NCBI GenBank assembly: GCA_044337585.1 | Contig: JBIINH010000001.1 | Location: 9,087-73,086, forward strand | Source of the DNA: Bacteroidia bacterium | GTDB taxonomy: Bacteria > Bacteroidota > Bacteroidia > UKL13-3 | Length of the DNA: 64,000 nt | Direction: 5' to 3' | Shown: piece after piece, positions 17,873-56,608 of the stretch | Layout of the letters: the number at the start of each line of letters is the position of its first letter | How positions within the stretch are numbered: position 1 is the stretch's first letter | Position numbers and translations under genes: made by a program | The notes under the pieces: generated by a model | Told to the model about the DNA's origin: nothing | The model's input: the letters and a program-made list of their open reading frames with translations, nothing else | The model's database searches: none

Positions 17873-19879
17873 CTACAACTGAACCCTATTTTTTTTGTAA
17901 AAAAGGTCCATACTTAATACATGTGGAATGCTGATGCAAGAAAGTAGAATAAAGAAAATGCTAATATAATCTGCACGGTTTAGCAACATAAATGCAACGA
18001 TTATAAATGCACCACCCATGCTAAATGGAAGCGATTTTTTCCAAAGTTGATACGTATTGGTTTTTAATGCTGTTTTTAAATGGCTCCATCCATGAAAGCT
18101 GTGTTGAATAACAAAGTATATGCCAAATGAAACTAGTAATGGCAACATACTTGAAATAAGGAGGTAGCTGAAAGTTAGAGCCATGCGCTTAGACTTATTG
18201 TAAACAATCATCAATATTGAAAGCATAGAAACGATAAGTTTCGAATACAATATTATTGGTTGGGTTAATGTTTGTAAATAGGTGTTAAGTTTCAAACCTT
18301 TTATGTGTTCAAGAACTGAAAGTGTTTCTTCGAAATGGAAAATCAAAATGAGCGCAAGCACCGATAGTCCCCACAAAAAAGAATTAGGGCCTTGTTTTAA
18401 ATTCCACTCATTGGTATCAGCTTGTCCGAAATGCCAAGCCGAGTATGCAATAAATGTAATTAATGCCAAATCGGGTAGGATAAACCAAATAGCGCCTAAC
18501 AAAGCGCCTTTGGCAAGATAGGCTGCAATAAATTTGATAAATTGCCTCTGCCCGTTAATTTTCTGATCGGTTAAATGATCAACTGCACCATGTGATAAAC
18601 CAATTGTTAAAAAGCCCAAACCTAAGAAAATCCAAAGTACTTCTTGCCATTGATTTATGTGCAAAAACAAAGATGCGAGTGTGAAGAGAAGTGCAGCTAA
18701 AGTGGGGGTGAGTGCAGATATTTTGTAGCTCACATCTTTTACTGCGGTTTTTAAAAAAAGTGCGATAGGGAGTTTCGAAAAAATATGAATCTCGTTAGGT
18801 ATACTTGTTTTTTCATTTAAAAAAGTGAGAACCTTAGAGATGGGAATATTTGTGAATAAGCATTGAAAAATTTCTTTGCCTCGGCTGGGTGATAATTCTA
18901 AAATTTTAAGTAATAACCTATCGTAGAATTTAAATCTAGAAATACGATTATTGCGTTTATATAATTCTCCTTTTTGGATTGCCTCGGCTAGGCTTTTAGC
19001 ATCTTTAGCCATAGCATGAAAAGCATATCCAGTTGAGGGTTTTATCATATTTGCTTTTGCACCCGTATATAACCAATTTGCTCCATAATGATTATTGGCT
19101 ATTGTTGCCGAAGACATTGGAACCACACCTATCTCTTTGTCTAAAATAGTATAGTTGATTCCCAATTTTTGGATATACTCTTTAAATATGATTTCGGCAT
19201 CATGCTTGGAGATAATCTCTTTACCAAATCTAGTAATTTCAAATAGCGCAGTGCGATCTGTGAATGGGAGTATATACATAAATTGGCATGCATCATTTTG
19301 TGCAATGTCAAAATCCATCATCGTTGCTGTGCTAGTATCAAATTCAGCATTTGTTGTTTGAATTTCCCAACCATAAAAAGATTGGTACAAATGGCTTTGG
19401 TTGTTTTTAGGTGGAGAAAATATAGGTGGTCGGCTGTCGAATACTTTTTGGGCAATTATTTTGTCATTTCCTACATCAACCTGATATGAGTTGTTGTTGA
19501 GTATGTTTGGTTCGTTGCTAAGTGAGGTTGTGTAGAATTGAGTTGTTTCCTTCTTTAGGATTTCTTTGGCTTTGTTGTATAAATCTATTCCCTTGATATG
19601 GAAATAATTTAGGGGAGTGATGTGCTGTTTCAAGCCATTCACGTTAATGTGGCTCCATGATGAACTGATGAGTTGTTGAAGATTTAGTTCAGATACTTCT
19701 TCTTCACTTGTCCAGAAACAGAAGGTTCTGTCATTTACATTTTTGCTACTAGGTTCAATTACAGCAATCTTTTTATCCTTCAATAGGCCTTTTTCAAACA
19801 AGTTAAGCAACAACAAAGAATTGGCTGCTCCTAATCCAATAAATAGGAAGTCAACTTCGATGTTCATATTACTTTTCAT
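17873..19879 (-). CDS. fusion protein with an N-terminal CrtY-type lycopene beta-cyclase domain and a C-terminal Brp/Blh beta-carotene 15,15'-dioxygenase domain
   Basis: N-terminal about 380 aa has the FAD/Rossmann motif DFLFIGLGAANSLLL and the CrtY blocks (DRTFCFW, QFMYILPF...LFEITRF, KPSTGYAF). C-terminal about 290 aa is a 7-TM domain with conserved His residues (GAVDH, WHFGQAD, QHSFHGWSH) typical of Blh. It is one uninterrupted 668-aa ORF. Confidence 0.8.
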   Translation of the reverse strand: MKSNMNIEVDFLFIGLGAANSLLLLNLFEKGLLKDKKIAVIEPSSKNVNDRTFCFWTSEEEVSELNLQQLISSSWSHINVNGLKQHITPLNYFHIKGIDLYNKAKEILKKETTQFYTTSLSNEPNILNNNSYQVDVGNDKIIAQKVFDSRPPIFSPPKNNQSHLYQSFYGWEIQTTNAEFDTSTATMMDFDIAQNDACQFMYILPFTDRTALFEITRFGKEIISKHDAEIIFKEYIQKLGINYTILDKEIGVVPMSSATIANNHYGANWLYTGAKANMIKPSTGYAFHAMAKDAKSLAEAIQKGELYKRNNRISRFKFYDRLLLKILELSPSRGKEIFQCLFTNIPISKVLTFLNEKTSIPNEIHIFSKLPIALFLKTAVKDVSYKISALTPTLAALLFTLASLFLHINQWQEVLWIFLGLGFLTIGLSHGAVDHLTDQKINGQRQFIKFIAAYLAKGALLGAIWFILPDLALITFIAYSAWHFGQADTNEWNLKQGPNSFLWGLSVLALILIFHFEETLSVLEHIKGLKLNTYLQTLTQPIILYSKLIVSMLSILMIVYNKSKRMALTFSYLLISSMLPLLVSFGIYFVIQHSFHGWSHLKTALKTNTYQLWKKSLPFSMGGAFIIVAFMLLNRADYISIFFILLSCISIPHVLSMDLFYKKNRVQL

Positions 19880-19896: not shown

Positions 19897-19935
19897 AAAA
19901 AAAGAAGACACCTGTTATAATAAACAGATGTCTTC
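19897..19935 (-). terminator. rho-independent terminator downstream of the rhodopsin gene
   Basis: On the minus strand: 12-bp stem (gaagacatctgt/acaggtgtcttc, one mismatch), 8-nt loop, then a TTTTTTT run. It sits between the rhodopsin stop (19957) and the crtY-blh start (19879). Confidence 0.55.
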
Positions 19936-19956
19936 TTCAATTTCTTTTGTAAAGGA

Positions 19957-20673
19957 TTAGTCTTCAGTTCTGCTTAAAGCATAAATTACTAAACCAAAAC
20001 CAATTTTGTTAATGGCATCTGCAATATTGTAAACGATGTCCATAGCTTTGAGTGCTGCAGTAGTATCTGATACTAATTGCATTCCAAATAATCCACCTGG
20101 AGTTCCCAAAATGTAACCTAGTGGATAAATAGCCCATCCCACTAGAACAAACCATCCTAAAATCTTGGTTGCTTTGGCTACTTGTGCACCTGCATTTTGC
20201 GAAAGTTGCGCAACTTCTCCAAACCATACCAAATAAACAATGTAGAAATAAGCGATACCAGATAAAACTCCCCACAATACACTTCCGTCTCTGTCTAAAA
20301 CTTCACCTACATAACCAGTAACCAACATCACAAGTGATGCAAAAATAAGTTTCCATAATAACCCAATCTTAGCACCCGCTTTTTTGGTGATTAAATAAAA
20401 CTCAACACACATTAATGGCACTGTCAATATCCAATCTACATAACGGAAGAAGGTTGGAGAATCACCAGTTTCTAAATTGTAACCTCTCATGTAGTAGTAA
20501 TGTACTGCTGCGATAAAGGTAATAAGTCCAGAAACAAGGACTGAAGTGCGCCATTTTTGAGAAGTGTTGCCTAACTCAAAAAAGAAGAATACAGATGCGG
20601 CCATCATGGCCATAGTTCCGATAAAAAATGTGAATGCCACATAATTATCACTAGCGATTTTTAAGTGTTCCAT
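19957..20673 (-). CDS. microbial rhodopsin, proteorhodopsin/xanthorhodopsin-type light-driven proton pump
   Basis: Seven-TM protein. Helix C reads RYVDWILTVPLMCVEFYL, giving Asp proton acceptor, Thr, Glu proton donor (DTE motif) and Met at the position-105 tuning site. Helix G carries the Schiff-base Lys in DAINKIGFGL. Confidence 0.9.
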   Translation of the reverse strand: MEHLKIASDNYVAFTFFIGTMAMMAASVFFFFELGNTSQKWRTSVLVSGLITFIAAVHYYYMRGYNLETGDSPTFFRYVDWILTVPLMCVEFYLITKKAGAKIGLLWKLIFASLVMLVTGYVGEVLDRDGSVLWGVLSGIAYFYIVYLVWFGEVAQLSQNAGAQVAKATKILGWFVLVGWAIYPLGYILGTPGGLFGMQLVSDTTAALKAMDIVYNIADAINKIGFGLVIYALSRTED

Positions 20674-20992: not shown

Positions 20993-21922
20993 TTAGCTAT
21001 TCGTCTGTGTATGTTTATCTGTATTTTTATAGGAATTGTGTATGAGCAATATTAAGTACCCAAATACAACTGCACTAATTATGAGTGCATTATTAATTAA
21101 TCCTTCCACCGAAAATGACAATTTGATCAGTATTGTAGAGATGACAAAGCCTGAATTACGAATGATGGTATGAAAACTGTCTGAATAGAAAAATGAAAAC
21201 AAAAGCAATAGCACATCAATGATGATTAGGAGAATAAAAAAGTCTTCAAAAAATACATTGTTGATGTACTTAAATGTGGTGATATCGTTCCAATTGCTTT
21301 GATTACTTATAATAATCCATTGTGCAAACGAGTATAAAGCAAGGATGATAACTATAGGTATCAATACTTTTGCAATGATATTCTTCAGTTGTATAAATGT
21401 GCCAATTCGTAGCTTTTCAACTTCGCTTTTGTTTGTGCTGCTGTTCAGTGAGAATTTCTCGAGGTTGCGGTAAAATTGTTGAATTAAGAAAAATAGAATA
21501 ATGGCCGTTGCCAAATCATAGGTAAACTGAAGGTCATTTTGAAGATTAAACCAGTTGGAAGACATTTCAATATTCCCAATGTCTTTGAAAATTCTACGGA
21601 TTACTATGAGGGTGATGATTTCGTATTGCTTACCTATGTATGTAGAGGTGGATTTTGGTAAATAATAAACCAAAAGAAAAACTTCATAAACAAGAATAAA
21701 AGAGAAAGGGGTGTAAACAGCAGATATTGGATTTTTAGTGAGTTTGGAATTAAGGTGAATGATATCTTCGCTTACCAAAAAAATTACAGATAAGTGTAAG
21801 AGAAAACTGATTATTGCAATCCAAATTGTGGTTTGCTCTAGTTTTTCCCTGAACTTGTCAGTAAGTAAATGATTGAAAATATTTAGCATTTTTATCAAAC
21901 TAATCCATTTCGGATTAATCAC
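20993..21922 (-). CDS. polytopic membrane protein of unknown function (about 8 TM)
   Basis: 309 aa, very hydrophobic, with no recognisable channel or transporter signature. It lies directly upstream of, and co-directional with, the rhodopsin gene. Confidence 0.5.
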   Translation of the reverse strand: MINPKWISLIKMLNIFNHLLTDKFREKLEQTTIWIAIISFLLHLSVIFLVSEDIIHLNSKLTKNPISAVYTPFSFILVYEVFLLVYYLPKSTSTYIGKQYEIITLIVIRRIFKDIGNIEMSSNWFNLQNDLQFTYDLATAIILFFLIQQFYRNLEKFSLNSSTNKSEVEKLRIGTFIQLKNIIAKVLIPIVIILALYSFAQWIIISNQSNWNDITTFKYINNVFFEDFFILLIIIDVLLLLFSFFYSDSFHTIIRNSGFVISTILIKLSFSVEGLINNALIISAVVFGYLILLIHNSYKNTDKHTQTNS

Positions 21923-22038: not shown

Positions 22039-22749
22039 TTACAATGTATTCAGCAGCTGTTCCATCATTTTGCCGTTCCACTTGCCATGAAACTTGTAAG
22101 GAACAAATCGGGCAAACATTTCCTCATTATACCAATTGAGTTTTCGGGTGAGTTGCACAACTTCCTTATGATGTTGATTTTTATAGGCATAATCCATCAT
22201 TTCTGCTTTAGTCTTCCATACGCTTAAGGTTGCTTGCTGTATCAAAGGCCATTCGCCCACACCAATGGATAATACTAGTCCCGTGTAATTTTCTAAGCTT
22301 TTACTCACTTTGCCCACTTTGCTCCAAAACGAAAGCAGTTTCGAGAAACGGATTGTGGCCCTTGTTAAAACCATTACAGGTTTATCTGCTACCAATTGGG
22401 CAGATTGCTCGAAAGGTTGCATTCCATCCCATTTGCCATGTACCTCAGCTGCTTGAGCATAAACCGTAAAATATTCTGTACTTTTTGATTGGTATTTTTT
22501 TAAGTAGTTTTTTGTAGTTAAAAATTGATTAGCTGCTTCTTCAGATTTCCAAACACACAACAAAACGTAAGTGCCAAAGTTGGGTATTGCACTAAATCCA
22601 TTCTTTGCTCCGGAGCCTAATAATTTATAGAAAACCAATCCATCTGCTCCCTTTATAGATTTGTGGCCGAATTGCATTTGGGTAAATGCCCACAATTTAT
22701 TTCTCAAACCCTCTAATTTAAAGAATGTACAGGTTGTAATTTGATTCAT
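22039..22749 (-). CDS. CrtA-like (spheroidene monooxygenase / carotenoid 2-hydroxylase-like) protein, tentative
   Basis: 236 aa. The N-terminal pattern (TCTFFKLEGLRNKLWAFTQMQFG...FYKLLGSG) recalls the CrtA/CrtA-OH family. Assignment is from memory of the family, not from a search. Confidence 0.4.
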   Translation of the reverse strand: MNQITTCTFFKLEGLRNKLWAFTQMQFGHKSIKGADGLVFYKLLGSGAKNGFSAIPNFGTYVLLCVWKSEEAANQFLTTKNYLKKYQSKSTEYFTVYAQAAEVHGKWDGMQPFEQSAQLVADKPVMVLTRATIRFSKLLSFWSKVGKVSKSLENYTGLVLSIGVGEWPLIQQATLSVWKTKAEMMDYAYKNQHHKEVVQLTRKLNWYNEEMFARFVPYKFHGKWNGKMMEQLLNTL

Positions 22750-22796: not shown

Positions 22797-23717
22797 TTAT
22801 TTTTTTTCTACCACAATGAGTTGGATACCGAATGGTAACAATTTTTCGAAAACAAATAGGGGTATTGTATATACCTTACGGAATACAAGTGGCCAAAATT
22901 CTTTTTCCATATTTCCCGACCAATTGATGCTTTTTTTCTCCATTATTCCCAACCACCATAGGGTAAAGGCGTCTAATGTTCCCAGCCGTAAGTATTTCAC
23001 AATATTCCATTTCTTTTTGTCAAACAAAACTTCAAAACTCTTTTGAGAAAATAAGGATAAGTGACGTGGACTATGCCAACCTTGCCAATATTGTTTTTGT
23101 ATTTTAGCAGTAAGGCTCTTGTAATCGGGAACTTCGATTATTAGTTTGCCCCCAGGTTCCAATAAGCCATATAGTTTTTCAATAGTTTCTATTGGTTGGT
23201 AATCATGCTCCAAATAATGCCATAGCGTAATGATATCGAATTTATTTATTGTGTCAAATGCTTCGATTGACGAATTGACTAACGTGATGTTTTCTACTTT
23301 TTTATTTTCCCATCCTGCATCCGAAAAATCAATTCCGGTACATGAAAAGTTAAGTTGTTTTTGCAAAACTTCTAAAAATGTGGGATTACCACAACCCACA
23401 TCTAAAATACGCACCTGTTTATTATTTGCGCCAACCCATCTTTTTACAAAGCGAACCCGTCTGATATCAAGTTGCTTTTGGCTTTTATCAACAAAGGAAG
23501 CGAACTTTCCCCATGCTTTCGATCCTTTATAAGGTAGATAGTTTTCGGTATAGTAAGTGGCTAAATTTTTTTCTGAAACAGGATTGGATAAAAATACCAA
23601 TTCGCATTGATTGCATTTATAAAAATGATACTGTTCATTATTTTTTTTGTGCATTAATGCACTGGTTGTAATATAAAATGAAGCACCGGCTTGATTACAA
23701 ATAGGGCAGCTAAACAT
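22797..23717 (-). CDS. class I SAM-dependent methyltransferase with N-terminal zinc ribbon
   Basis: CxxC...CxxC N-terminal zinc ribbon. SAM motif I (ILDVGCGNPTF) and a Methyltransf_13-like C-terminal region. Confidence 0.7.
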   Translation of the reverse strand: MFSCPICNQAGASFYITTSALMHKKNNEQYHFYKCNQCELVFLSNPVSEKNLATYYTENYLPYKGSKAWGKFASFVDKSQKQLDIRRVRFVKRWVGANNKQVRILDVGCGNPTFLEVLQKQLNFSCTGIDFSDAGWENKKVENITLVNSSIEAFDTINKFDIITLWHYLEHDYQPIETIEKLYGLLEPGGKLIIEVPDYKSLTAKIQKQYWQGWHSPRHLSLFSQKSFEVLFDKKKWNIVKYLRLGTLDAFTLWWLGIMEKKSINWSGNMEKEFWPLVFRKVYTIPLFVFEKLLPFGIQLIVVEKK

Positions 23718-28604: not shown

Positions 28605-30062
28605 ATGGAAATTGACTATTCAGCATACGAACCCGTAATTGGTTTAGAAGTACATGCACAAATGCTTACTAAAAGTAAAGCATATAGTGATGATGCGACA
28701 GATTATGGTGCATCGCCAAACACACAAGTAAGCCCTATTACTCTTGGTCATCCAGGTACATTGCCTGTACATAATTTAGAGGCAGTGAAATTTGCAATCA
28801 AAATGGGAATAGCCTGCCAATGTGATATTGCCGAATATAATTACTATGCACGCAAAAATTATTTCTATGCAGATTTGCCTAAAGGCTATCAAATTACTCA
28901 GGATAAAACACCAATATGTACCAATGGATACATTGATATTAAACTTAAAGATGATACAGAGAAGCGCATCAACCTTACCCGCATACACATGGAGGAAGAT
29001 ACAGGTAAAAGCATGCACGATCAAGATGTGTATGATACATTAATTGACTATAACCGAGCAGGTACTCCGCTTATAGAAATTGTAACTGAACCTGATATAC
29101 GAACCGGTGAAGAGGCTTATCAATATTTAACTGAAATACGCCAATTGGTTCGATACCTAGAAATATGTGATGGCAATATGGAAGAAGGATCAATGCGCTG
29201 CGATGCCAATGTTTCAGTTAGGAAAAAAGGTGCTTCAGGTTATGGTACAAAGGTGGAAGTAAAAAACATGAATTCTATTCGCAACGTGCAACGAGCCATT
29301 GATTTTGAAATAAAAAGGCAAATAGAAGCATTGGAGAATGGTGAAAAAATTTACCAAGAAACACGCACATTTGAGGCAACCAAAGGTATCACTATCGTGA
29401 TGCGTACCAAAGAAGGAGCTAGCGATTACCGTTACTTTCCCGAACCTGATTTGCCACCTTTGCGCATTACACCAAGCTATATTGAAAGTGTAAAGGCTCA
29501 AATGCCTGATTTGCCAAAAGCCCTTTTTCAAAAATTTACCTCAGCATATAAACTAAGTGACTATGATGCCGGAGTGCTTACCGAAAATAGGTATGTAGCC
29601 GAGTATTTTGAAATATTGTTGAAACATACCGACAATATCAAAGCAGCAGCAAATTGGCTGATGGTGCAAATAAAAGGTTACTTGAATGAAAATGCACTTG
29701 ATATCAAAGACTTTGTGCTTTCACCTTCCAAAATTGCAGATATCATTGGCTTGATTGATGCAGGAAAAATAAGTCACTCATTGGCATCAAAAAATTTATT
29801 TCCTGCCATGATTGCGCACCCTGATATGTCAGCAGCAGCCTTGTCAGAAAAATTAAATCTTACCCAAGACAATGATACTGGTGAATTGGAAAAAATTATA
29901 GCTCAGGCTTTGGCTAAGTATCCTGAAAAAGTAGCTGAATACAAAGCAGGAAAAACATCACTTATCGGCTTGTTTATGGGCGAAGTAATGAAGCTAAGCA
30001 AAGGCAAAGCCGATCCAAAAATAGCCAATCAATTAGTAAAAGAACAATTAGACAAATCATAA
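28605..30062 (+). CDS. gatB: Asp-tRNA(Asn)/Glu-tRNA(Gln) amidotransferase subunit B
   Basis: GatB N-terminal motifs (EPVIGLEVHAQ) and full length of 485 aa. Confidence 0.95.
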   Translation: MEIDYSAYEPVIGLEVHAQMLTKSKAYSDDATDYGASPNTQVSPITLGHPGTLPVHNLEAVKFAIKMGIACQCDIAEYNYYARKNYFYADLPKGYQITQDKTPICTNGYIDIKLKDDTEKRINLTRIHMEEDTGKSMHDQDVYDTLIDYNRAGTPLIEIVTEPDIRTGEEAYQYLTEIRQLVRYLEICDGNMEEGSMRCDANVSVRKKGASGYGTKVEVKNMNSIRNVQRAIDFEIKRQIEALENGEKIYQETRTFEATKGITIVMRTKEGASDYRYFPEPDLPPLRITPSYIESVKAQMPDLPKALFQKFTSAYKLSDYDAGVLTENRYVAEYFEILLKHTDNIKAAANWLMVQIKGYLNENALDIKDFVLSPSKIADIIGLIDAGKISHSLASKNLFPAMIAHPDMSAAALSEKLNLTQDNDTGELEKIIAQALAKYPEKVAEYKAGKTSLIGLFMGEVMKLSKGKADPKIANQLVKEQLDKS

Positions 30063-30066
30063 CAAA

Positions 30067-31188
30067 ATGCAAAAAATATCATACCTATTTATCGTAGGAT
30101 TTGTGCTGCTAAGCTCAGCTTGCAGCCAGTCAAAAGAAAAGCCAGGCAACTTTTCGGTTAAAGGCAATATTAAAAATTATACCGGTCCTGCTTTGCAATT
30201 AAGCGAAATCACAACAACTGGTCTAAAATTTATCGACTCCACTTTGGTAGATGCCAAAGGCAATTTTGAATTTAAAAACAGCGTATCGCATCCTACATTT
30301 GCCATTATTGGTTTTAGCAATACAGCAATTGTACTGTTGCTCGACTCTGGTGCTACAACCACCTTATCCATTGATTCAAAAACACCAGAAGCTTATGGCG
30401 TATCTGGCACATTAGAAAACGAACAATTGCGTCAAATCATTTTAATGAATAACAAATACATGATGCAAGTAAATGAATTGGAACGTAGATATACAGAAGC
30501 GGCCCAACAAAAAACCATGACTGTTGAAATGGAAAACAAAATTAAAACAGAATATCAAGGTTTGATGGATGCCCGTACCAATGAGCTTAAGGAAAAAACA
30601 TTGTCAATTGAAAGTGGCTTGGTTCCTTATTTTGTTACCAACTTTTTGATGCCTGAAGCCGACTTCGAATTTTTCAACAAAGTAGATGAAAAGTTTTACA
30701 ACCGCTACACTGATTCTAAATATGCACAAGACTTACACAAAAGGGTAGTGAAGCTAAAAGGTACCGCCACTGGCCAGCAGGTAGCAGATATTGTGTTACA
30801 AGATCCATATGGAAAAACCATTGCACTATCATCACTCAGGGGAAAATATGTACTTATTGATTTTTGGGCAAGTTGGTGTGGTCCCTGTAGGCGCGAAAAT
30901 CCAAACGTGGTAAAGATGTATCAGAAATATAAAGACAAAGGATTTGATATTTACAGTGTGTCGCTTGACGACAATAAAGATTCTTGGATGAAAGCCATCA
31001 ATGCCGACCAATTGCTATGGCCAAATCATGTGAGCGACTTGCAAAAATGGAATTCATCGGTGGTTCCACAATTTAATATTGAAAGTATACCCTTTACTAT
31101 GTTGATTGATGCTGAGGGTAAAATTATAGGCAAAAACCTTAGAGGTGAAGCGCTTGAGCAAAAATTGAAAGCTATTTTCAATTATTAA
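30067..31188 (+). CDS. TlpA/AhpC-TSA-family thioredoxin lipoprotein (DUF4369-like N-terminal domain + thioredoxin domain)
   Basis: Lipobox LLSSAC and a WCGPC active site (WASWCGPCRRE). Confidence 0.75.
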   Translation: MQKISYLFIVGFVLLSSACSQSKEKPGNFSVKGNIKNYTGPALQLSEITTTGLKFIDSTLVDAKGNFEFKNSVSHPTFAIIGFSNTAIVLLLDSGATTTLSIDSKTPEAYGVSGTLENEQLRQIILMNNKYMMQVNELERRYTEAAQQKTMTVEMENKIKTEYQGLMDARTNELKEKTLSIESGLVPYFVTNFLMPEADFEFFNKVDEKFYNRYTDSKYAQDLHKRVVKLKGTATGQQVADIVLQDPYGKTIALSSLRGKYVLIDFWASWCGPCRRENPNVVKMYQKYKDKGFDIYSVSLDDNKDSWMKAINADQLLWPNHVSDLQKWNSSVVPQFNIESIPFTMLIDAEGKIIGKNLRGEALEQKLKAIFNY

Positions 31189-46631: not shown

Positions 46632-47047
46632 TTAAGAAACCATCTGTATATGATTGCTCTTTGGTTCAGTTACCAAAAATACATTTTAGGGCTGGCAACA
46701 TAACTCCCGTGCATGGCAACAAAGAAATACCATTTGATATCAAACGTGTATTTTATTTATATGATATTCCAGGAGGAGAGTCAAGAGGTGCCCATGCACA
46801 TTTTGAATGCCATCAGTTTTTAATTGCTGCAAGCGGGAGCTTCGAAGTATTATTAGATGATGGAAAGGTGAAAAGACAAGTGCAGCTCAACCAACCTTAT
46901 ATCGGCTTACACATTCCACCAATGATTTGGGCATCTGAAGTCAATTTTTCATCAGGTGCCATTTGTTTGGTGATGGCCTCTCATGGCTATAATGAATTAG
47001 ATTATATACGCGATTACAATACATTTTTGAAGGAGGTAAATCGATGA
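46628..47047 (+). CDS. FdtA/WxcM-like sugar 3,4-ketoisomerase cupin (paralog 2, canonical HxH)
   Basis: Same fold with a canonical RGAHAHFE His pair. ATGA overlap with paralog 1. Confidence 0.75.
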   Translation: MIKKPSVYDCSLVQLPKIHFRAGNITPVHGNKEIPFDIKRVFYLYDIPGGESRGAHAHFECHQFLIAASGSFEVLLDDGKVKRQVQLNQPYIGLHIPPMIWASEVNFSSGAICLVMASHGYNELDYIRDYNTFLKEVNR

Positions 47048-47586
47048 CCATACATCCACTTGCAGATGTGCAATCAAACAAAATTGGAGAAGGAACTAGG
47101 GTGTGGCAGTTTGCCATCATACTTGAGGGCGCAATTATTGGCAAAGATTGTAATATTAATTGCCACACGTTTATAGAAAATGATGTTATTATTGGGAATC
47201 ACTGTACCATCAAATCTGGTGTGTATGTATGGGATGGTATACAAATGGAAGACGATGTTTTTGTAGGTCCAAATGTGACATTCATAAATAATAATACTCC
47301 ACGTTCACAGCAATATCCTGAAAAACATATTGGTGTTAGCATTCGCAAAGGCGTATCTATCGGTGCAGCTAGCACTATAAAAGGAGATATTGAAATTGGT
47401 GATTTTGCCATGATTGGCGCAGGCAGTTTACTCACCAAATCCGTTCCTGCGTTTCAGCTATGGTATGGACATCCTGCTTCGCATAAAGGTTATGTAACAA
47501 GGGATGGCATCTTGCTCGATCTAAATCTTAAAGATAATAAAGGCAACCAGTTTCAATTAATTAATCAAGAACCCAAAGCAAAATAA
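47044..47586 (+). CDS. hexapeptide-repeat sugar N-acetyltransferase (WbpD/WlbB/FdtC-like)
   Basis: Left-handed beta-helix hexapeptide repeats. The N-terminus MTIHPLADV... is like WlbB/WbpD. Confidence 0.8.
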   Translation: MTIHPLADVQSNKIGEGTRVWQFAIILEGAIIGKDCNINCHTFIENDVIIGNHCTIKSGVYVWDGIQMEDDVFVGPNVTFINNNTPRSQQYPEKHIGVSIRKGVSIGAASTIKGDIEIGDFAMIGAGSLLTKSVPAFQLWYGHPASHKGYVTRDGILLDLNLKDNKGNQFQLINQEPKAK

Positions 47587-47594
47587 TAATATTC

Positions 47595-48881
47595 ATGTCT
47601 TCAACACACATTACAGACAAGTATAAAATAGGCATTATTGGCCTAGGTTATGTTGGACTCCCGCTTGCAGTTGAATTTGCTAAGAAATTTCATACCATTG
47701 GTTTTGATATTAACCAACTACGTATTGATGAATTAAAAAAGGGAGTAGACCGCACGCTCGAGGTTGATAATCACGAACTTTTAGCAAGTAGTTTATTGAC
47801 TTTTTCTTCGCAAACCGAAGATCTTGCCAAGTGCAATTTTTTTATTGTAACCGTACCAACACCAGTTGATCGATTCAATCATCCCGATCTGACGCCACTA
47901 AAAAAAGCGAGCGAAACAGTAGGCAAGGTGCTCAAGAAAAATGATATTGTGGTGTATGAGTCAACCGTGTATCCGGGTGCCACAGAAGATGAATGTATCC
48001 CTGTGCTTGAAAGAATGTCAGGCCTTATTTTTAATAAAGATTTTTTTGCAGGCTACTCTCCCGAGCGCATTAACCCTGGAGATAAAGAACATACGGTTTC
48101 AAAAATACTCAAAGTGACATCTGGTTCTACACCCGAAATAGCAGATGAGGTTGATGCAGTGTACAGAAGCGTAATTGTAGCAGGTACCCACAAAGCACCT
48201 TCGATAAAAGTAGCTGAAGCAGCAAAAGTGATTGAAAATGCACAACGTGATATCAATATTGCTTTTGTAAATGAGCTTTCTAAAATCTTTAATTTATTAG
48301 GTATTGATACATCAGCAGTATTGGAAGCAGCCGGCACAAAATGGAACTTTTTAAAGTTTAAACCAGGCCTGGTAGGAGGTCATTGTATTGGTGTGGATCC
48401 TTATTATCTAGCTCAAAAAGCACAAGAAGCCGGATATCATCCTGAGATAATACTTGCCGGAAGACGACTAAATGACAGCATGGGAAAATACGTTGCTGAT
48501 GAGGCTGTAAAACTTATTGTAAAAAAAGAACTCAATGTAAAAGGAGCCAATGTTCTAATATTAGGAATCACCTTTAAAGAAAATTGTCCTGATGTGCGCA
48601 ATACCAAGGTAGTTGACATCATTAGTGAGCTAAATACTTATAATGTAAATATAACTATTCTTGACCCATGGGCCGACAAACACAGCGTGGTCGAAGAATA
48701 TGGTTACTCAATCATCAACGAATTGAGTGAGTCAACTATTAAGAAGTTTGAATGTGTAATATTTGCAGTAGCGCATAAGCAATTTCAAAATATAAATATA
48801 AAAGATATTACTGTGCCCAATGCCGTAGTAGTTGATGTAAAAAGTATATTACCCCTTAATCAAGTAGATTTTAGATTGTAA
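47595..48881 (+). CDS. UDP-N-acetyl-hexosamine 6-dehydrogenase (nucleotide-sugar dehydrogenase; WbpA/WbpO/TviB-like)
   Basis: N-terminal Rossmann [13 protein letters not shown] and a catalytic Cys in [11 protein letters not shown]. Confidence 0.85.
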
Positions 48882-49990
48882 TGAAAGAAATAAAATTTTT
48901 AGACCTACAAGCAATTAACAAACGGCACGAAAAACATTTTCATGACGGGTTGCAGCGTGTGATTGAATCAGGTTGGTTTATTCTGGGAAAAGAAGTGGAG
49001 GCATTTGAGAAAGAGTATGCAGCTTATTGCACTTCTTCTTATTGTGCAGGTGTAGCCAACGGACTCGATGCACTCATTCTAATTCTTCGGGCCTACAAAG
49101 AATTAGGGCTTATGAAGGATGGTGACGAAGTTATCGTTCCTGCCAATACTTATATCGCTACCATACTTGCCATATCTGCAAATGGATTAATACCTGTATT
49201 GGTAGAGCCTGATTTAGATACCTATTTATTGGATGCAAATCAAATTTCAAAACACATCAGTTCAAATACAAAGGCCATCATGGTTGTGCACCTTTACGGA
49301 CAATGTGCTGATATGGATGCCATAAATGAATTAGCACAAGCGCATAATTTAAAGGTAATTGAAGATTGTGCGCAATCACATGGTGCTGGATACAAAAATA
49401 AAAAATCTGGTAATTTAGGACATGCAGCAGCCCATAGTTTTTATCCAGGAAAAAATTTAGGCGCACTCGGTGATGGAGGAGCAATTACAACTAATGATGA
49501 ATTATTGTTTTCAACTATTAAAGCTTTGCGTAATTATGGTTCTCATAAAAAATATGAAAATATTTACAAAGGACTTAATAGCAGGTTAGATGAATTGCAG
49601 GCACCTTTTTTAAGGGCCAAACTTATAGATCTTGATGCAGACAATAACTTTCGAAGTCAAATTGCACATCGCTACATTACTGAAATTAAGAACAAGCATA
49701 TTGTTTTGCCAATTGTGCCTTCCTATAGTGAGCCGGTTTGGCATCTTTTTGTAATAAGGGTAAAGAATAGAAATACTTTTCAAGAGTATCTTTCGAATAA
49801 CGGAATTCAAACCGTAATTCACTATCCAATACCCCCACACCAACAGCAAGCCTACAAAGAACTTTCCCATTTAAATTTTCCAATTACTGAGCTTATACAC
49901 CAACAAGTTATCAGTTTGCCTGTAAGTCCTGTAATGCCTGACTCTGAAGTGACTTATGTGATTGACATATTAAATAAATGGGAAGGATGA
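48881..49990 (+). CDS. DegT/DnrJ/EryC1/StrS-family sugar aminotransferase
   Basis: PLP-dependent fold-I sugar aminotransferase motifs and a Lys-containing region. 369 aa. Confidence 0.85.
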
Positions 49991-49993
49991 GTT

Positions 49994-51046
49994 ATGAGTA
50001 AGCAGGAATTAACATTAAAAGACATTATTGGTATAGCAACAGATTGGTTTAATTTTTTGCTATCTAAGTGGAAGACAATTGTGCTGTCAGGATTTATTGG
50101 GTTAGCATTAGGCATTGGTTATTCAATGATAAGTCCTAAGATATATGAAGCAGAACTTACATTTGCATTGGAAGAAAAAGGTGGAGCTATGAATGCATAT
50201 GCAGGACTTGCAAGCCAATTTGGATTAGATATTTCTAAAGGAAGTGAGAGTGGTGCTTTTGTTGGAGAAAACATAATGGAATTGTTTAAGTCTCGATTGA
50301 TTATGGAGGCCGCCTTGCTAGAACCAGCTTTGTTTAACGGTGAAAAAGATTTATTGATTAATAGGTATTTAAAATTTCATAAAATTGATGAGAAACTTGT
50401 GGCAAATGAAGTCACTAAAGACCTAAAGTTTATAGAAGGACAGCCAAGAGAGGAATTTTCAAGGGCACAAGACAGTTTATTACACGCTGTATCTAAAAAG
50501 TTGAAGAAAGAGAACTTATTTGTATTTAAAGTAGATAAGAAACTAAATATTATAAGCATGGTTGTGAAATCAGCTGATGAGCAATTTGCAAAATTGTATT
50601 GCGAAGTTTTAGCAAAAAATGTAAGAGATTTGTATATTGAAACAAAGACCAAAAAAGCAAGAAAAAATGTTGATTTACTAACATTTAAAGCAGATTCTGT
50701 TCAGCAAGTATTGAATGCTGAGATGTATGGAGCAGCGGCCAATATGGATCAAAATATTAATCTAGTACGTACCGAATTGCGTGTGCCTTACGCTAAAAAG
50801 CAAATGAATGTGGAGCTATTAACCGCAGTATATGCAGAGCTGCTAAAGAATCTTGAATTAAGCAAACTCAGTTTGCAACGGGAAGAACCAATTATTCAAT
50901 TAATTGATAGGCCTATCTATCCTCTTTATTATTCCAAGCCCGGAAAAACTAAATCTGGTATTATTGGCGGCATATTATTTGGATTTCTTTCTGTACTCTT
51001 TTTCGTTGTTAAGCGTCAGTATTCAATTATCATGCAGGAGCAATAA
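49994..51046 (+). CDS. Wzz-like polysaccharide chain-length determinant protein (no kinase domain)
   Basis: N-terminal TM helix, large periplasmic coiled region and a C-terminal TM helix (IIGGILFGFLSVLFFVV). Confidence 0.65.
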   Translation: MSKQELTLKDIIGIATDWFNFLLSKWKTIVLSGFIGLALGIGYSMISPKIYEAELTFALEEKGGAMNAYAGLASQFGLDISKGSESGAFVGENIMELFKSRLIMEAALLEPALFNGEKDLLINRYLKFHKIDEKLVANEVTKDLKFIEGQPREEFSRAQDSLLHAVSKKLKKENLFVFKVDKKLNIISMVVKSADEQFAKLYCEVLAKNVRDLYIETKTKKARKNVDLLTFKADSVQQVLNAEMYGAAANMDQNINLVRTELRVPYAKKQMNVELLTAVYAELLKNLELSKLSLQREEPIIQLIDRPIYPLYYSKPGKTKSGIIGGILFGFLSVLFFVVKRQYSIIMQEQ

Positions 51047-52183
51047 ATGAGTACTAGTCAAAAAAAAATACAGATGGTAGACTTGAAAGGGCAGTACCTG
51101 AAAATAAAGTCTGAGGTTGATAGCGCAATTCAGGATTGTCTTTCAAACGCAACATTTATCAATGGTCCTGAAGTTGCTAATTTTGCAAATGGTTTAGCAA
51201 AATATCTCAATGCGGCTTATGTTATTCCTGTAGCTAATGGTACAGATGCACTACAAATAGCCATGATGGCTTTGGGCTTGAAGCCAGGCGATGAAGTTAT
51301 TGTCCCAGCATTTACATATGTAGCCACTGCCGAGGTTATTGCTTTATTGGGATTAACACCTGTTTGGGTTGATGTTGATTCAGATACATTTACAATTGAT
51401 GCAAACAAAGTTGAGTCAATCATTACTCCTAAAACTAAAGCAATTGTTCCGGTGCACTTGTATGGACAAACGGCATCAATGGAACAATTGATGGCAATTG
51501 CTAGAAAGCATCATTTGTTTGTGATTGAAGACAATGCGCAAGCATTAGGAGCTGATTATCATTTTTCTGATAGTACTGTGGTTAAAGCTGGTGTAATTGG
51601 TGATATTGGATGCACTTCATTTTTTCCATCTAAAAATTTAGGATGTTATGGTGATGGAGGTGCATTGTATACTAATAATAAACAACTTGCCGAATCCATA
51701 AAAATGATTGCAAATCATGGTCAGAAAGTAAAATATTATCATGATGTAATTGGTGTAAACTCAAGACTAGATTCTTTGCAAGCAGCAATACTAAATGTAA
51801 AGTTGACATATTTAGATGAATATACCTCGGCACGTCAGCTTGCTGCATCACGTTATGATAAATTACTTTCAGGTATAAATCAAATTAATACGCCTGTAAG
51901 AAATAAACACTCCTCACATGTGTTTCATCAATATACCATAAAAGTGAAAGATGACCGAGATGGTTTGAAGTCATACTTAGAGTCGCATGGTGTGCCTACT
52001 ATGATTTACTATCCTGTTCCGATGCATCAGCAAAAAGCATATGTAAATGATGGCTATCCTTTAGGTTCATTTCCTGTTTCCGAACTACTAAGTAAAGAAG
52101 TAATATCATTGCCTATGCATACAGAATTAGATGAGGCAACACAAGTATTTATAGCAGATAAAATTAAAGCCTTTTTTACATAA
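51047..52183 (+). CDS. DegT-family sugar aminotransferase (WbpE-like)
   Basis: Second fold-I aminotransferase, a paralog of 48881..49990. Confidence 0.85.
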   Translation: MSTSQKKIQMVDLKGQYLKIKSEVDSAIQDCLSNATFINGPEVANFANGLAKYLNAAYVIPVANGTDALQIAMMALGLKPGDEVIVPAFTYVATAEVIALLGLTPVWVDVDSDTFTIDANKVESIITPKTKAIVPVHLYGQTASMEQLMAIARKHHLFVIEDNAQALGADYHFSDSTVVKAGVIGDIGCTSFFPSKNLGCYGDGGALYTNNKQLAESIKMIANHGQKVKYYHDVIGVNSRLDSLQAAILNVKLTYLDEYTSARQLAASRYDKLLSGINQINTPVRNKHSSHVFHQYTIKVKDDRDGLKSYLESHGVPTMIYYPVPMHQQKAYVNDGYPLGSFPVSELLSKEVISLPMHTELDEATQVFIADKIKAFFT

Positions 52184-53205
52184 TGTCAGATAATCAAAAG
52201 ATAAAATTTGCAGTAGTAGGATGTGGGCATATCGGTAAACGACATGCTGAAATGATTCAAAGAAATGAACAGGCAGAGTTGGTTGCCCTTATTGATACAA
52301 AGGAGAAATCAGACTTAGGCATTGACAATTATACCATTCCTTATTTTCAATCACTTGAATCATTTATAGTATCAGATATTGCATGTGATGTAATAAATAT
52401 TGCTACCCCAAATGGATTTCATGCATTGCAGGCTATGCAAGCACTTCAAGCAAAAAAACATGTAGTTATTGAAAAGCCTATGGCCTTATCAAAAAACGAT
52501 GCTGAGAAAGTAGTATTTAAAGCACTTGAGGAGCATAAGCATGTATTTGCAGTGATGCAAAACAGATATTCTCCTCCATCTGTATGGATAAAAGAAATAG
52601 TCACATCCGGTTTGCTTGGAAAAGTTTTTATGGTGCAGCTAAATTGTTATTGGAATAGAGATGACAGGTACTATAAATCGGGAAGTTGGCATGGTAATAA
52701 AGCACTTGATGGGGGCACGTTGTTTACTCAGTTTTCACATTTTATTGATATCATGTACTGGCTATTTGGTGATATAGAAAATATCCAAACCAGACTAAGA
52801 GATTTCAATCATACTACACTAACTGAATTTGAAGACAGTGGATTTGTTAGTTTTGATTTTATTAACGGTGGAATAGGTTGTATTAATTATTCTACATCTG
52901 TATGGAATACAAACCTAGAAAGCAGCATGACAATTGTTGCCGAAAATGGAAGTGTGAAAATCGGAGGACAATATATGAACGAAGTAGAATATTGTCATAT
53001 TAAAAATTATCACTTGCCTGAGTTAGCACCAACAAACCCTGGTAATGATTATGGAGCTTATAAAGGGTCTGCACAAAATCACCACTATGTTATTCAAAAT
53101 GTAGTTGATGTATTGAACGGCAAAGCTCCTATCACAACCAATGCGTTAGAAGGACTGAAAGTAGTAGATATGATAGAGAGAATTTATGCAAATGCTTCAA
53201 AATAA
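52183..53205 (+). CDS. Gfo/Idh/MocA-family oxidoreductase (WbpB-like UDP-sugar 3-dehydrogenase)
   Basis: N-terminal Rossmann KFAVVGCGHIGKRH. 340 aa. Confidence 0.85.
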   Translation: MSDNQKIKFAVVGCGHIGKRHAEMIQRNEQAELVALIDTKEKSDLGIDNYTIPYFQSLESFIVSDIACDVINIATPNGFHALQAMQALQAKKHVVIEKPMALSKNDAEKVVFKALEEHKHVFAVMQNRYSPPSVWIKEIVTSGLLGKVFMVQLNCYWNRDDRYYKSGSWHGNKALDGGTLFTQFSHFIDIMYWLFGDIENIQTRLRDFNHTTLTEFEDSGFVSFDFINGGIGCINYSTSVWNTNLESSMTIVAENGSVKIGGQYMNEVEYCHIKNYHLPELAPTNPGNDYGAYKGSAQNHHYVIQNVVDVLNGKAPITTNALEGLKVVDMIERIYANASK

Positions 53206-54200
53206 TGAGTCCATTTGATAAAAATATAAAAGGTAAGTCCTTCTTAGTTACTGGTGGAGCAGGTTTTATTGGCTCCAATTTGGTTGAACATTTATTATAT
53301 AATGAAGCTGGCAGGGTTGTGGTATTAGATAATTTAAGCAATGGTTTCTATAAAAATATTGAACCTTTTTTTTCAAACTTATCATTTCATTTTATAGAAG
53401 GTGATATCAGAAATTTGGAAGATTGTAAGCGTGCATGCGAAGGTGTTGATTATATAAGTCATCAAGCTGCTTTAGGTTCTGTACCACGAAGTCTTGCCGA
53501 TCCTATTACCACGAACGAAGTGAATGTGAGCGGATTTCTAAATATGCTAGTGGCGGCCAGTGAAGCCAAGGTGAAACGGTTTGTTTATGCAGCTTCATCT
53601 TCTACATATGGTGATAGTCAATTTTTACCCAAAGTAGAAGATGTAATAGGGAAGCCATTGTCGCCATATGCAGTAACAAAATATGTAAATGAGTTGTATG
53701 CGCATGTGTTTGCTTTAAATTACAATTTACCCGTTATAGGACTTAGATATTTTAATGTATTTGGTCCAAAACAAGATCCAAATGGTGCTTATGCTGCTGT
53801 AATCCCGTTATTTATTCAAGCGATTATTGAAGGGAAGAATCCTGTTATTAATGGAGATGGTATGCAAACCCGTGATTTTACTTATATTGATAATGCTATA
53901 CAAGCAAATATTCATGCTTTACTTATCGATAATTCAGCGGCACTCAATCAAGTATTTAATATTGCCGTTGCACAAACCACTTCAATTAACCAAATGATTG
54001 AAATGCTTGCACAAATTAGTGGTAAGGATTTGAAGCCTCAATACAGAGAAGCCAGAGTTGGTGATGTTAGAAACAGTTTAGCTGATATCAGTAAGGCTGC
54101 TTCAATGCTATCGTATCAACCTTTTGTAAAATTTTCTGACGGACTTCGTAAAACTTATGAATGGTTTGAATCGAATCAAGCATTTATAGGGAAAATATAA
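53205..54200 (+). CDS. NAD-dependent UDP-sugar 4-epimerase (WbpP/TviC-like SDR)
   Basis: GGAGFIGS Rossmann, YxxxK catalytic motif (YAVTKYVNE), extended SDR. Confidence 0.85.
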   Translation: MSPFDKNIKGKSFLVTGGAGFIGSNLVEHLLYNEAGRVVVLDNLSNGFYKNIEPFFSNLSFHFIEGDIRNLEDCKRACEGVDYISHQAALGSVPRSLADPITTNEVNVSGFLNMLVAASEAKVKRFVYAASSSTYGDSQFLPKVEDVIGKPLSPYAVTKYVNELYAHVFALNYNLPVIGLRYFNVFGPKQDPNGAYAAVIPLFIQAIIEGKNPVINGDGMQTRDFTYIDNAIQANIHALLIDNSAALNQVFNIAVAQTTSINQMIEMLAQISGKDLKPQYREARVGDVRNSLADISKAASMLSYQPFVKFSDGLRKTYEWFESNQAFIGKI

Positions 54201-54209
54201 TTGAGCTAC

Positions 54210-55496
54210 ATGAGAGCCAAATTAAATAGTATATTAACCTCTCAATTCTTTTCGGTATCCGTTTTTACATCTTTATCAACTGCAATAAAATTAATCACTT
54301 CATTTCTTTCCGCAAAAATTATAGCAATTTATATAGGACCAGAAGGGCTTGGTATGTTGGGGCAGCTGAGTAGTTTTATTGCTATTGCTTTATCTGGATC
54401 AACGGGTGCTATTAATAATGGGGTTATTAAATATTTATCAGAATACCAAGATGACGAAGTAAAGCAACACAGAATTTTAAATGCATCACTTAAAATAACC
54501 TTGATGGGTTCTATAATTACTGGAAGTATTTCCATAATTTTTTCCAGCTTTTGGTCAACATTATTGTTTAATGAATTAGCTTATTCCTATATCTTTATCG
54601 TTTTAGGAGCAACCCTATTTTGCCATGCTATATTTATGTTATTCTCGTCAGTGCTAAATGGCTTGAGGGAATACCGAAAATATAATCAATTAGCTATTGT
54701 GGCAAGTATGTTGGGCTTAATTACCACATACTTGTTTATACGCTATTATGGAATTAGAGGTGGCATGATTTCTCTTGTATTATATCAAGCTTTTGTATTT
54801 GTAGCTGTTTTAATATTTTATAAAAGTTTAAGAAGAATTCAGTGGCGAAATATTTGGAAACAAAAAGCCCTCCAATCTGATTACAAATCACTGATGGCAT
54901 TTTCAATTATGGCATTGGTAACAACAGCAATAACTCCTGCAACACAAATTTTTATAAGGAAATACATGGGTATTCATACCAGTGCTATTGAAGTAGGTTT
55001 TTATGAAGGCGTACTTCGAATTTCACAATTGTACTTACTAATCATAACCACAACACTTTCTGTATATTATTTGCCAAAACTTTCAGGAATTAAAAACGCA
55101 GCATTACTTAGATCTGAATTAGGAAAGGGGTATAGTTACATTCTTCCTGCTACAGCCCTAATTCTTGTTGTTGTTTTTCTACTACGGTACTTTGTAATAA
55201 ACATTGTGTTTGCCCCTAGTTTTGAGCCAATGGCGGATTATTTTATACCACAATTGATAGGAGATTTTTTTAAAATTGGCAGTTGGTTATTGGCTTTCTT
55301 AATGATTGCAAAAGCAAAAACAAAACTTTACATCACAACGGAACTTCTTTTTGGTGGATTTTTAATACTGCTTTCCGTACTAGGCATTCAATATTTTGGA
55401 GCAATAGGAGCCATCTATGCTTATGCCTTAAATTATATGCTGTATTTTGTTTTGATGATTTTTGTATTCAGTAAAATAATTTGGCTGAAACGATGA
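54210..55496 (+). CDS. Wzx-type oligosaccharide flippase (MOP superfamily)
   Basis: About 12-TM polysaccharide biosynthesis protein. Start moved to the first ATG (54210, MRAKLNS...) because the track start is TTG. Confidence 0.75.
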   Translation: MRAKLNSILTSQFFSVSVFTSLSTAIKLITSFLSAKIIAIYIGPEGLGMLGQLSSFIAIALSGSTGAINNGVIKYLSEYQDDEVKQHRILNASLKITLMGSIITGSISIIFSSFWSTLLFNELAYSYIFIVLGATLFCHAIFMLFSSVLNGLREYRKYNQLAIVASMLGLITTYLFIRYYGIRGGMISLVLYQAFVFVAVLIFYKSLRRIQWRNIWKQKALQSDYKSLMAFSIMALVTTAITPATQIFIRKYMGIHTSAIEVGFYEGVLRISQLYLLIITTTLSVYYLPKLSGIKNAALLRSELGKGYSYILPATALILVVVFLLRYFVINIVFAPSFEPMADYFIPQLIGDFFKIGSWLLAFLMIAKAKTKLYITTELLFGGFLILLSVLGIQYFGAIGAIYAYALNYMLYFVLMIFVFSKIIWLKR

Positions 55497-56608
55497 AGAA
55501 ACAAAACATACTATTGGTTGGGGAATTCAGCAATGTGCATTGGACACTGGCCGAAGGTTTAAGAAGCCTTGGTCATCAAGTTGATGTAGCTTCAAAAGGT
55601 GATGGATGGAAAGGGTATAAACGTGATATTGACTTATCATTTAAAAATAAGTTAGATGTAATGCGATTTTTCCTTGAATTATTTTTTACCAAAAAGTTTA
55701 GTGGCTATGATGTTGTACAATTAATCAATTTCAGGTTTTTGTATCCAGAGGAAAGAGATTTGTACAATAAAATTATATTTAATGTCTTAAGGAAAAGAAA
55801 TAAATCTGTGTTCCTTGCTGCTTACGGGGATGATTACTATTGGTCTTCTGCTTGCAGGAGTGGCGCATTTCCATATTCGCCTTACGATGCATTGGATAAA
55901 GGATATGCACCAAATGTGTATTATGACCAAATGATGCAATTGAATAATTTTGCCTCACGTGAGTTGAATGAAATGATGGCACAAAAATCAAATGGAATTA
56001 TTGCAGGACTTTATGATTATTATTACAGTTATGCCATTTCATCATTTAAGAACAAATTGGAGTTTATTCCCTTTCCGATAAATACGAAAGAGATTAGCTA
56101 CAAAAAAAATACATTGAATCAAGGCGAAAAGATGCGCATATTTATGGGGATTCAAACCCAACGTTCTGTATGGAAAGGAACTGACGTGTTGTTGCAGGTA
56201 TTAACCGAATATGTAGCAAAATACAGCGATGAAATGGAATTGATAATTGCTGAAAGTGTACCTTTTGACACCTACATCAAAATGTATGAAGATGCGCATG
56301 TTTTTGTAGATCAGTTATATTCCCAAGGGTTTGCCATGAATGCGCTTTATGCGATGGCAAAGGGTAAAGTAGTACTGAGTGGAGGCGAAAATAAAATGTA
56401 TGCGCTTTATGGAGATTCAGAAATCGAAAAACCTGTGATTAATATTGTGCCTGAAAAAGAAAAGATTATTGGGGTATTGGATCAGATAAGGCAAAACAAA
56501 AACCGATTGGAAGAGATGGGATTAGCATCACGAAAGTTTGTTGAACAATATCATGATTATAAAGTAGTAGCCAGACAGTACGTGCAAGTATGGGAGAGTG
56601 CCATATGA
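55493..56608 (+). CDS. glycosyltransferase-like protein (GT4-like fold, divergent)
   Basis: Start at ATG 55493 in an ATGA overlap with the wzx stop. GT-B-like C-terminal region. Weak family assignment. Confidence 0.5.
   Translation: MKKQNILLVGEFSNVHWTLAEGLRSLGHQVDVASKGDGWKGYKRDIDLSFKNKLDVMRFFLELFFTKKFSGYDVVQLINFRFLYPEERDLYNKIIFNVLRKRNKSVFLAAYGDDYYWSSACRSGAFPYSPYDALDKGYAPNVYYDQMMQLNNFASRELNEMMAQKSNGIIAGLYDYYYSYAISSFKNKLEFIPFPINTKEISYKKNTLNQGEKMRIFMGIQTQRSVWKGTDVLLQVLTEYVAKYSDEMELIIAESVPFDTYIKMYEDAHVFVDQLYSQGFAMNALYAMAKGKVVLSGGENKMYALYGDSEIEKPVINIVPEKEKIIGVLDQIRQNKNRLEEMGLASRKFVEQYHDYKVVARQYVQVWESAI

Follow-up and report, generated by a model that had tools for sequence, protein, structure and literature searches.

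Proteorhodopsin photosystem clusters usually carry crtY directly followed by blh, an order described as shared across prokaryotic groups (PMC10284914). In marine Proteobacteria and Verrucomicrobiota the cluster reads PR-crtE-crtI-crtB-crtY-blh (PR, proteorhodopsin), and in the Bacteroidota Dokdonia PRO95, MED134, 4H-3-7-5 and Gillisia R-8282 PR adjoins the gene for the final retinal enzyme (PMC3587595). A first-pass annotation of the DNA analyzed here held that crtY and blh are separate genes in the photosystems described so far, and the literature bears this out (PMC10284914, PMC3587595). Here we report on a stretch of 64,000 nucleotides from a Bacteroidia bacterium of the UKL13-3 lineage (GenBank assembly GCA_044337585.1, contig JBIINH010000001.1, positions 9,087 to 73,086 of the forward strand; hereafter, the window), with a GC content of ~36% and type IX secretion system (T9SS) sorting domains among its encoded proteins, in which a single gene, crtY::blh, encodes both a CrtY-type lycopene cyclase and a Brp/Blh-type beta-carotene dioxygenase and lies next to a proteorhodopsin gene. 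As in the proteobacterial and verrucomicrobial clusters, the opsin of the window is linked to the retinal genes and the crtY to blh order is kept; in those clusters, however, crtY and blh are separate and crtE/I/B travel along, whereas the window holds one open reading frame (ORF) in a two-gene cassette and no crtE/I/B in its 64 kb. The marine flavobacterial PR-blh pair shares with the window the adjacency of the opsin and the last retinal gene, but there blh stands alone and crtY is separate (PMC3587595). Unfused opsin-crtY-blh modules of uncultured Bacteroidota (loci L085, L089, L092, L093 and L094), and modules with crtY-blh only (L088 and L091), share the cyclase lineage, the Blh clade and the opsin association of the window, but each of them encodes two polypeptides, whose genes often overlap by ATGA, where the window encodes one. 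The cyclases of these unfused modules were 38-42% identical to that of the window when L085 and L088 were compared directly, and 35-43% identical across representatives.

Other fused carotenoid enzymes are known. The CrtI-CrtB-CrtYc/d-Blh protein of Thecamonas trahens has a lycopene cyclase directly N-terminal to Blh, as in the window, but it is eukaryotic, has four domains and carries an unrelated, membrane-embedded CrtYc/d cyclase instead of the flavoprotein CrtY (PMC10016063). Fungal CrtYB/CarRA/AL-2, thraustochytrid CrtIBY and verrucomicrobial CrtIB likewise place consecutive or nearby carotenoid steps in one chain, and it has been argued that intermediates are passed on better in this way; these are other enzyme pairs, however, and unlike the window protein none of them includes the retinal cleavage step. 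The table of carotenoid fusions of Klassen (2010) holds only CrtBYcd and CrtBI, and no CrtY-Blh. The presence of a crtY-blh fusion in Salinibacter ruber was not supported, since this species is reported to have crtYcd and not crtY (PMC5877348). The full-text literature searched, with most subscription journals outside its scope, yielded no description or test of a bacterial CrtY-Blh fusion. The crtY::blh gene is thus a modest variant of the known proteorhodopsin/retinal system, tidy more than surprising.

The crtY::blh gene (17873..19879, minus strand) is a single ORF of 668 aa with an ATG start, recovered at the coordinates given to it by the first-pass annotation. As expected, the scan against Pfam and NCBIfam placed PF05834 at the N-terminus and TIGR03753 at the C-terminus. 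The CrtY-type lycopene cyclase domain, with a flavoprotein fold (residues 10-374; 18758..19852, minus strand), matched PF05834 (Lycopene_cycl) with an E value of 2e-43 and 149.3 bits against a cutoff of 23.4, and the match spanned model positions 1-374 of 380. The Brp/Blh beta-carotene dioxygenase domain (residues ~419-660; 17900..18625, minus strand) matched PF15461 (BCD) over residues 423-660 (E 4e-34, 119 bits, cutoff 28) and scored 139.2 bits with TIGR03753 (blh), for which the cutoff is 95.25. Both domains thus stand in one polypeptide, with PF05834 and PF15461/TIGR03753 above their cutoffs and with motifs and His residues conserved. An AlphaFold 2 (AF2) model of the 668-aa protein reached a predicted local distance difference test score (pLDDT) of 89.4 and a predicted template modelling score (pTM) of 0.78. 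Fold searches returned matches for the flavoprotein half only, and none for the Blh half among the matches listed; a sequence search of the PDB with the fusion gave no match to either half.

We consider it probable that the fusion is a membrane-anchored, bifunctional lycopene-to-retinal synthase that serves the neighbouring proteorhodopsin. In the proposed mechanism, lycopene would be supplied by crtE/B/I located elsewhere in the genome, and the flavin-dependent cyclase half, working at the cytoplasmic face of the membrane, would convert it into beta-carotene, or at least gamma-carotene. A connector of fixed length, made of an amphipathic helix and an extra transmembrane helix (TM0), would tie the cyclase to a Blh of about nine helices, which would cleave the carotene at the 15,15' bond and deliver retinal to the proteorhodopsin encoded 77 nt upstream. 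Both enzyme activities are predicted from the sequence.

The fused architecture proved to be widespread, as the survey of other genomes suggested in the first-pass annotation revealed in many species-level loci and protein clusters. Among the matches listed at the 90%-identity level there were 120 clusters, 48-88% identical to the query; all 120 had both Pfam domains, and nearly all of these proteins were ~665-685 aa long. When one genome was scanned for each species, 198 pattern-matched stretches were confirmed, and the locus counts given here refer to the best 80, which matched over roughly residues 1-663 with identities down to 36% and had one open frame across both domains in 79 cases. A search at the 50% representative level returned 4219 relatives; in its top 150, where the architecture was counted, 94 were complete fusions, with identities down to 28%, and 33 were N-only, some of these database entries being split or truncated copies of fusions. 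The identical protein was recovered in both JGI and ENA data, and no relatives of the fusion were found in viral contigs. An artefact of assembly or sequencing, i.e., overlapping crtY and blh genes merged by a frameshift error, could be imagined, since unfused crtY-blh pairs with an ATGA overlap do exist and a single-base error could mimic the fusion; moreover, the database entries include a few obvious splits or truncations of fusions, and the frame is broken in one locus (L040). We give this explanation a negligible chance and reject it because the frame, the architecture and the junction spacing are conserved across homologs: a single frame in 79/80 loci and in more than ninety (>90) clusters at the 50% level, a 59-residue spacing from P371 to H430 in 84 homologs, and the identical protein in two data sources. 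The sole exception among the 80 loci (L040:481-2558) loses its frame early in the Blh half, which is attributable to a frameshift, to pseudogene status or to misassembly of that metagenome-assembled genome (MAG).

The architecture is therefore common in Bacteroidota, mostly freshwater ones, and patchily annotated, and the crtY::blh fusion is ancient. The first-pass annotation was not aware of any characterization of the fusion, and this stands in part: it is widespread, which counts against novelty, but it is annotated only in part and we found no paper describing it. The names given by the sources vary, from 'lycopene beta-cyclase' to 'Brp/Blh family dioxygenase', and one composite RefSeq name reads 'Brp/Blh family beta-carotene 15,15'-monooxygenase/lycopene cyclase-like protein'. 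Since proteins may be named after either half, surveys of retinal-pathway genes by product name could miscount. In addition, cassette contigs (L010, L021, L036, L045 and several 'Chitinophaga pinensis' or 'Chryseobacterium gleum' MAGs) were labelled Synechococcus, Methylacidiphilales, Methylotenera or Sphingomonadales, or with named type species. Such labels on Bacteroidota-type contigs suggest binning contamination or placeholder taxonomy, so that the taxon names attached to members of the family call for caution.

The residues expected for catalysis were then compared in both halves. The cyclase half has an N-terminal dinucleotide (flavin adenine dinucleotide, FAD) binding motif in addition to its flavoprotein fold. 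The CrtY of Pantoea deleyi was used as a pathway-verified reference, as it comes from a crtE-X-Y-I-B-Z cluster, and F200, Y202, L204, P205, L212, E214, T216, E249, G251, P254, G284 and Y285 of the fusion were invariant with it. These residues lie in motifs in common with the pathway CrtY, FxYxLP...LxExT, ExGxxP and TGY, which we take to be the catalytic motifs of the enzyme, and the motif positions stay invariant even in family members that are 27-28% identical. In the Blh half, H430, H483, H515, H593, H600 and H653 were invariant in an alignment of 84 sequences, and H596 was nearly invariant in an alignment of 19. For 66A03 Blh, His-21/78/188/256 have been proposed as iron binders and His-192 as an auxiliary residue (10.64898/2026.08.06.743266), and H430, H483, H593, H596 and H653 of the fusion are offset from His-21, His-78, His-188, His-192 and His-256 by a roughly constant +397 to +409. 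This enzyme accepts beta- and gamma-carotene as substrates, whereas it does not cleave lycopene (10.64898/2026.08.06.743266). Hence, if the fused Blh behaves alike, a cyclase step is needed before it can act.

The two halves are joined by a segment that is conserved in length. Residues 375-418 fall outside both Pfam models. The cyclase half ends in an amphipathic, lysine-rich helix (residues 372-388; 18716..18766, minus strand; pLDDT ~87-94), which is followed by TM0 (residues 392-408; 18656..18706, minus strand), an additional transmembrane helix indicated by a hydropathy peak at residues 387-408 and modelled by AF2 with a pLDDT of ~95. A turn of 3 residues connects TM0 to the first helix of Blh, the one that bears H430. 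The distance from P371 to H430 was exactly 59 residues in 84/84 aligned homologs, with no indels at the junction, and T400, within TM0, was invariant in the alignment of homologs. The sequence of the connector is less conserved than its length, which is invariant: the frequency of the majority residue was 0.49, versus 0.66 in the domains. The connector as a whole was modelled with a pLDDT of 87-95. Three Lys residues are found in residues 376-392, before TM0, and none in residues 410-416, after it, a distribution compatible with a cyclase on the cytoplasmic side and a TM0 that runs outward and hands over to Blh; we infer this topology. The model placed about nine helices over residues 412-667, in addition to TM0, as in a polytopic membrane protein, so that the seven-helix C-terminal half of the first-pass annotation has to be replaced by about nine Blh helices and one extra preceding helix. 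The 66A03 Blh has also been described with nine transmembrane helices (10.64898/2026.08.06.743266), and there is no room in it for a TM0, because its first His is already at position 21. In the split pairs of L085 and L088 the same elements are divided between two proteins: the amphipathic helix is the C-terminus of CrtY, and a TM0-like hydrophobic segment is the N-terminus of Blh, which in these loci is a protein of 291-296 aa.

Unfused relatives of the cyclase half point to the origin of the gene. Among eight standalone relatives sampled (P0227, P0235, P0237, P0249, P0253, P0264, P0240 and P0266), blh was found directly downstream, overlapping or within <=45 nt, in seven, and an opsin adjoined the pair in five. 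The nearest standalone cyclases are thus not pigment-cluster cyclases, and the crtY::blh gene is the one-polypeptide state of a conserved, blh-coupled and opsin-linked crtY lineage. This coupling by itself speaks for an N-terminal half that feeds Blh. The stop of crtY and the start of blh overlap as ATGA in L085 and L088, and therefore one indel suffices to fuse the two genes. Some clusters are wholly split, as in one with 8 members, all of 394 aa, and when the cyclase halves were placed in a crude neighbour-joining tree, the standalone ones were interleaved with fusions and also made up two separate blocks. This pattern suggests repeated fusion and fission, with the split and fused states interconverting.

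It was also considered what, if anything, the fusion adds to two active enzymes. Substrate channelling between the halves is plausible. In its strict form, the protein would take in lycopene and give out retinal without ever releasing beta-carotene, with the 59-residue connector and its TM0 positioning the exit of the cyclase over the substrate cavity of Blh; the outcome would be a two-gene phototrophy cassette for any lycopene-making host, one that would work even where the host pathway is monocyclic or quickly hydroxylates beta-carotene. We regard this strict form as rather doubtful. Alternatively, both halves would be active with no gain from channelling, the stop codon having been lost in a near-neutral way, and the fusion would provide only a 1:1 stoichiometry and co-localization. 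This explanation is compatible with a lycopene-to-retinal synthase and we hold it, tentatively, as a serious contender. The interleaving of fused and split states in the tree, the clusters that stay wholly split and the single indel between the overlap and the fusion all speak for it, but the invariant and confidently structured connector, together with the pTM of the model, hints at a constrained two-domain geometry, and the fused state dominates the top 150 representatives (94 fusions against 33 N-only entries, some of which are fragments).

The presumed user of the retinal is a proteorhodopsin of 238 aa (19957..20673, minus strand; bacteriorhodopsin family PF01036, E 1e-41). The closest solved structures to it were proteorhodopsins (9jov/9jou, E 1e-86; green PR, E 1e-48), and it carries the proton-pump DTE residues D80/T84/E91, the Schiff-base K223, and M88 at the spectral-tuning position. 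The first-pass annotation had placed the fusion directly 3' of an opsin gene, and this agrees with the PF01036 protein being encoded upstream across a 77-nt gap. Fifty related loci have an opsin upstream of the fusion and in the same orientation. A second opsin type, 56-64% identical to that of the window, lies upstream on the opposite strand in L056, L062, L068, L078 and L080, and in L031 it lies downstream of the fusion, also on the opposite strand. The opsin was 85-95% identical at the aa level (loci L001-L082) across hosts whose fusions are 37-60% identical. When the window was compared with four related loci (L081, L016, L020 and L022), the fusion had a median identity of ~47%, versus ~70% for GatB. 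A recent horizontal transfer behind the conserved opsin was rejected, since four-fold degenerate sites are near saturation, with a median identity of 0.43 for the opsin and 0.32 for the fusion. These values point to an unusually strong purifying selection on the proteorhodopsin clade that sits beside the fusion.

The spacer between the two genes contains a terminator-like hairpin (19897..19938, minus strand), with a 16-bp stem, a 6-nt loop and a U-run. Its folding free energy (dG) was -22.1 kcal/mol (z -5.6), and 0/200 shuffled sequences folded as well. Under strict criteria, an equivalent hairpin with a U-run was detected in 39/50 related spacers and in 1/50 coding controls, and the stems were not homologous in sequence between related spacers. 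The hairpin is probably a terminator or attenuator that limits the amount of enzyme compared with the abundant opsin, with partial read-through into the fusion as the predicted consequence. In Dokdonia, RNA-seq data revealed a weak expression of crtY and blh relative to the opsin (PMC3587595), and an attenuating hairpin is consistent with this. The idea of a minimal module of opsin and retinal synthase, as put forward in the first-pass annotation, thus stands as to the adjacency of the two genes, which is conserved, but is qualified by the terminator-like hairpin between them, by the occasional absence of the opsin and by the need for lycopene from crtE/B/I.

Several observations weigh against the proposed synthase and its coupling to the opsin. 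Transcription might stop completely at the hairpin, and the fusion would then be read from a promoter of its own. The U-run is only ~21 nt away from the ATG of the fusion. A scan for the Bacteroidota promoter motif TAnnTTTG was uninformative, with occurrences at chance frequency. An opsin is missing from the surrounding 10 kb in some members of the family, and in such loci the neighbouring genes are unrelated and there is no crt cluster. The correspondence between the His set of the fusion and that of 66A03 Blh is a likely one, drawn by offsets and not by alignment. Furthermore, the cyclase half scored below the curated NCBIfam cutoffs, with 87 bits versus 209.5 for TIGR01790 and 51 versus 215.2 for TIGR01789, and it is only ~21% identical to Pantoea CrtY. 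No second cyclase and no second Blh were found in the window or in the ~10-kb flanks of the 80 loci, but as to cyclases only PF05834-like ones were covered, and this search is blind to the CrtYcd and CruA types, so that another cyclase is possible.

From the low scores one might argue that the N-terminal half is inactive as a cyclase, i.e., a degenerate or repurposed flavoprotein acting as a carotenoid-binding or delivery domain, or as a redox helper for Blh, with beta-carotene provided by another cyclase of the genome. The divergence of the fusion, fast-evolving when set against GatB, would fit such a loss. However, the motif positions of the pathway CrtY are invariant down to the most distant members, Blh cannot use lycopene, and there is no other PF05834 gene in the window or in the flanks of the loci. 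In addition, the low score is a trait of the whole clade, because the eight standalone, blh-coupled relatives scored equally low (82-106 bits with TIGR01790 and 48-73 with TIGR01789). An inactive N-terminal half is therefore quite unlikely in our view, but the cyclase half should not, on its sequence scores, be filed as a TIGR01789 CrtY equivalog.

A second explanation accepts a cyclase activity but limits it to one end of lycopene. Carotenoids with a single ring are made by many Bacteroidota, and a flavobacterium is known to have a monocyclase of the CrtY type. With a monocyclase, gamma-carotene would be the product, and its cleavage would give one retinal and one acyclic retinal analogue, i.e., half the yield. 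Gamma-carotene is cleaved by Blh in vivo and in vitro (preprint 10.64898/2026.08.06.743266), and a CrtA-like ORF lies 2 kb away. The sequence gives no distinction between a mono- and a bicyclase; on the other hand, the strong coupling of this cyclase lineage to blh and opsins suggests a selection for retinal yield, and we judge a monocyclase to be unlikely. A lycopene-to-retinal synthase serving the proteorhodopsin thus remains the explanation that we favour.

The genomic surroundings of the cassette vary. In a 3.25-Mb contig (JGI Ga0620986_00015) and in a Pedobacter assembly (GCA_054061655.1), the opsin gene and crtY::blh stand together as a two-gene cassette, surrounded by unrelated housekeeping genes that differ between the two genomes. 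The window ORFs scanned (64 kb), the flanks of the 80 loci and the called genes that flank the fusion in these two large contigs contained no crtE/I/B. Just upstream of the opsin, 20993-21922 (minus strand) encodes a multi-helix membrane protein of a ~294-309-aa family with no match in Pfam or NCBIfam. A homolog lies beside the fusion in L002, L003, L011, L021, L031, L035 and L077, and beside the split crtY-blh in L088:91-1002. The family is very large and highly conserved and consists of Bacteroidota 'hypothetical proteins' (7983 matches, with 67-85% identity among aligned homologs), and the AF2 model of the 309-aa neighbour, with a pLDDT of 57.8, was too poor for a classification; its linkage to the cassette may be incidental. 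Further upstream, at 1.4-3 kb from the opsin, are the CrtA-like ORF (22039-22749, minus strand), which scored 214 bits with the spheroidene monooxygenase model NF045923, below the cutoff of 300, and matched DUF3291 weakly, as well as a class I methyltransferase (22797-23717, minus strand). Both recur just downstream of the L035 fusion (L035:12250-12936 and L035:12961-13863). Flavobacterial relatives of CrtA act as carotenoid 2-hydroxylases, and the CrtA-like neighbour may hint at the carotenoid type of the host. Within ~8-10 kb of the cassette, GatB and a DUF4369-thioredoxin gene (28605-31188, plus strand) are found, and the same pair is present in L081:4457-7041; some local synteny around the cassette thus survives between distant hosts. 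Finally, ~15 consecutive ORFs of 180-1003 aa on the same strand (47044-63933, plus strand) may form a large biosynthetic or polysaccharide locus.

If both halves of the protein are active, the opsin and crtY::blh would constitute the shortest genetic route known from lycopene to a working rhodopsin, in only two genes. The gene would also be a natural, ready-made fusion for microbial retinal production, where the leakage of beta-carotene and its competing hydroxylation limit the yield. The coexistence of fused and split forms offers a natural experiment on the channelling of hydrophobic intermediates within the membrane. For the organisms themselves, such a cassette, if the proposed function is true, would help to explain how rhodopsin phototrophy has been kept in many, mostly freshwater, Bacteroidota, whatever carotenoids the host makes.

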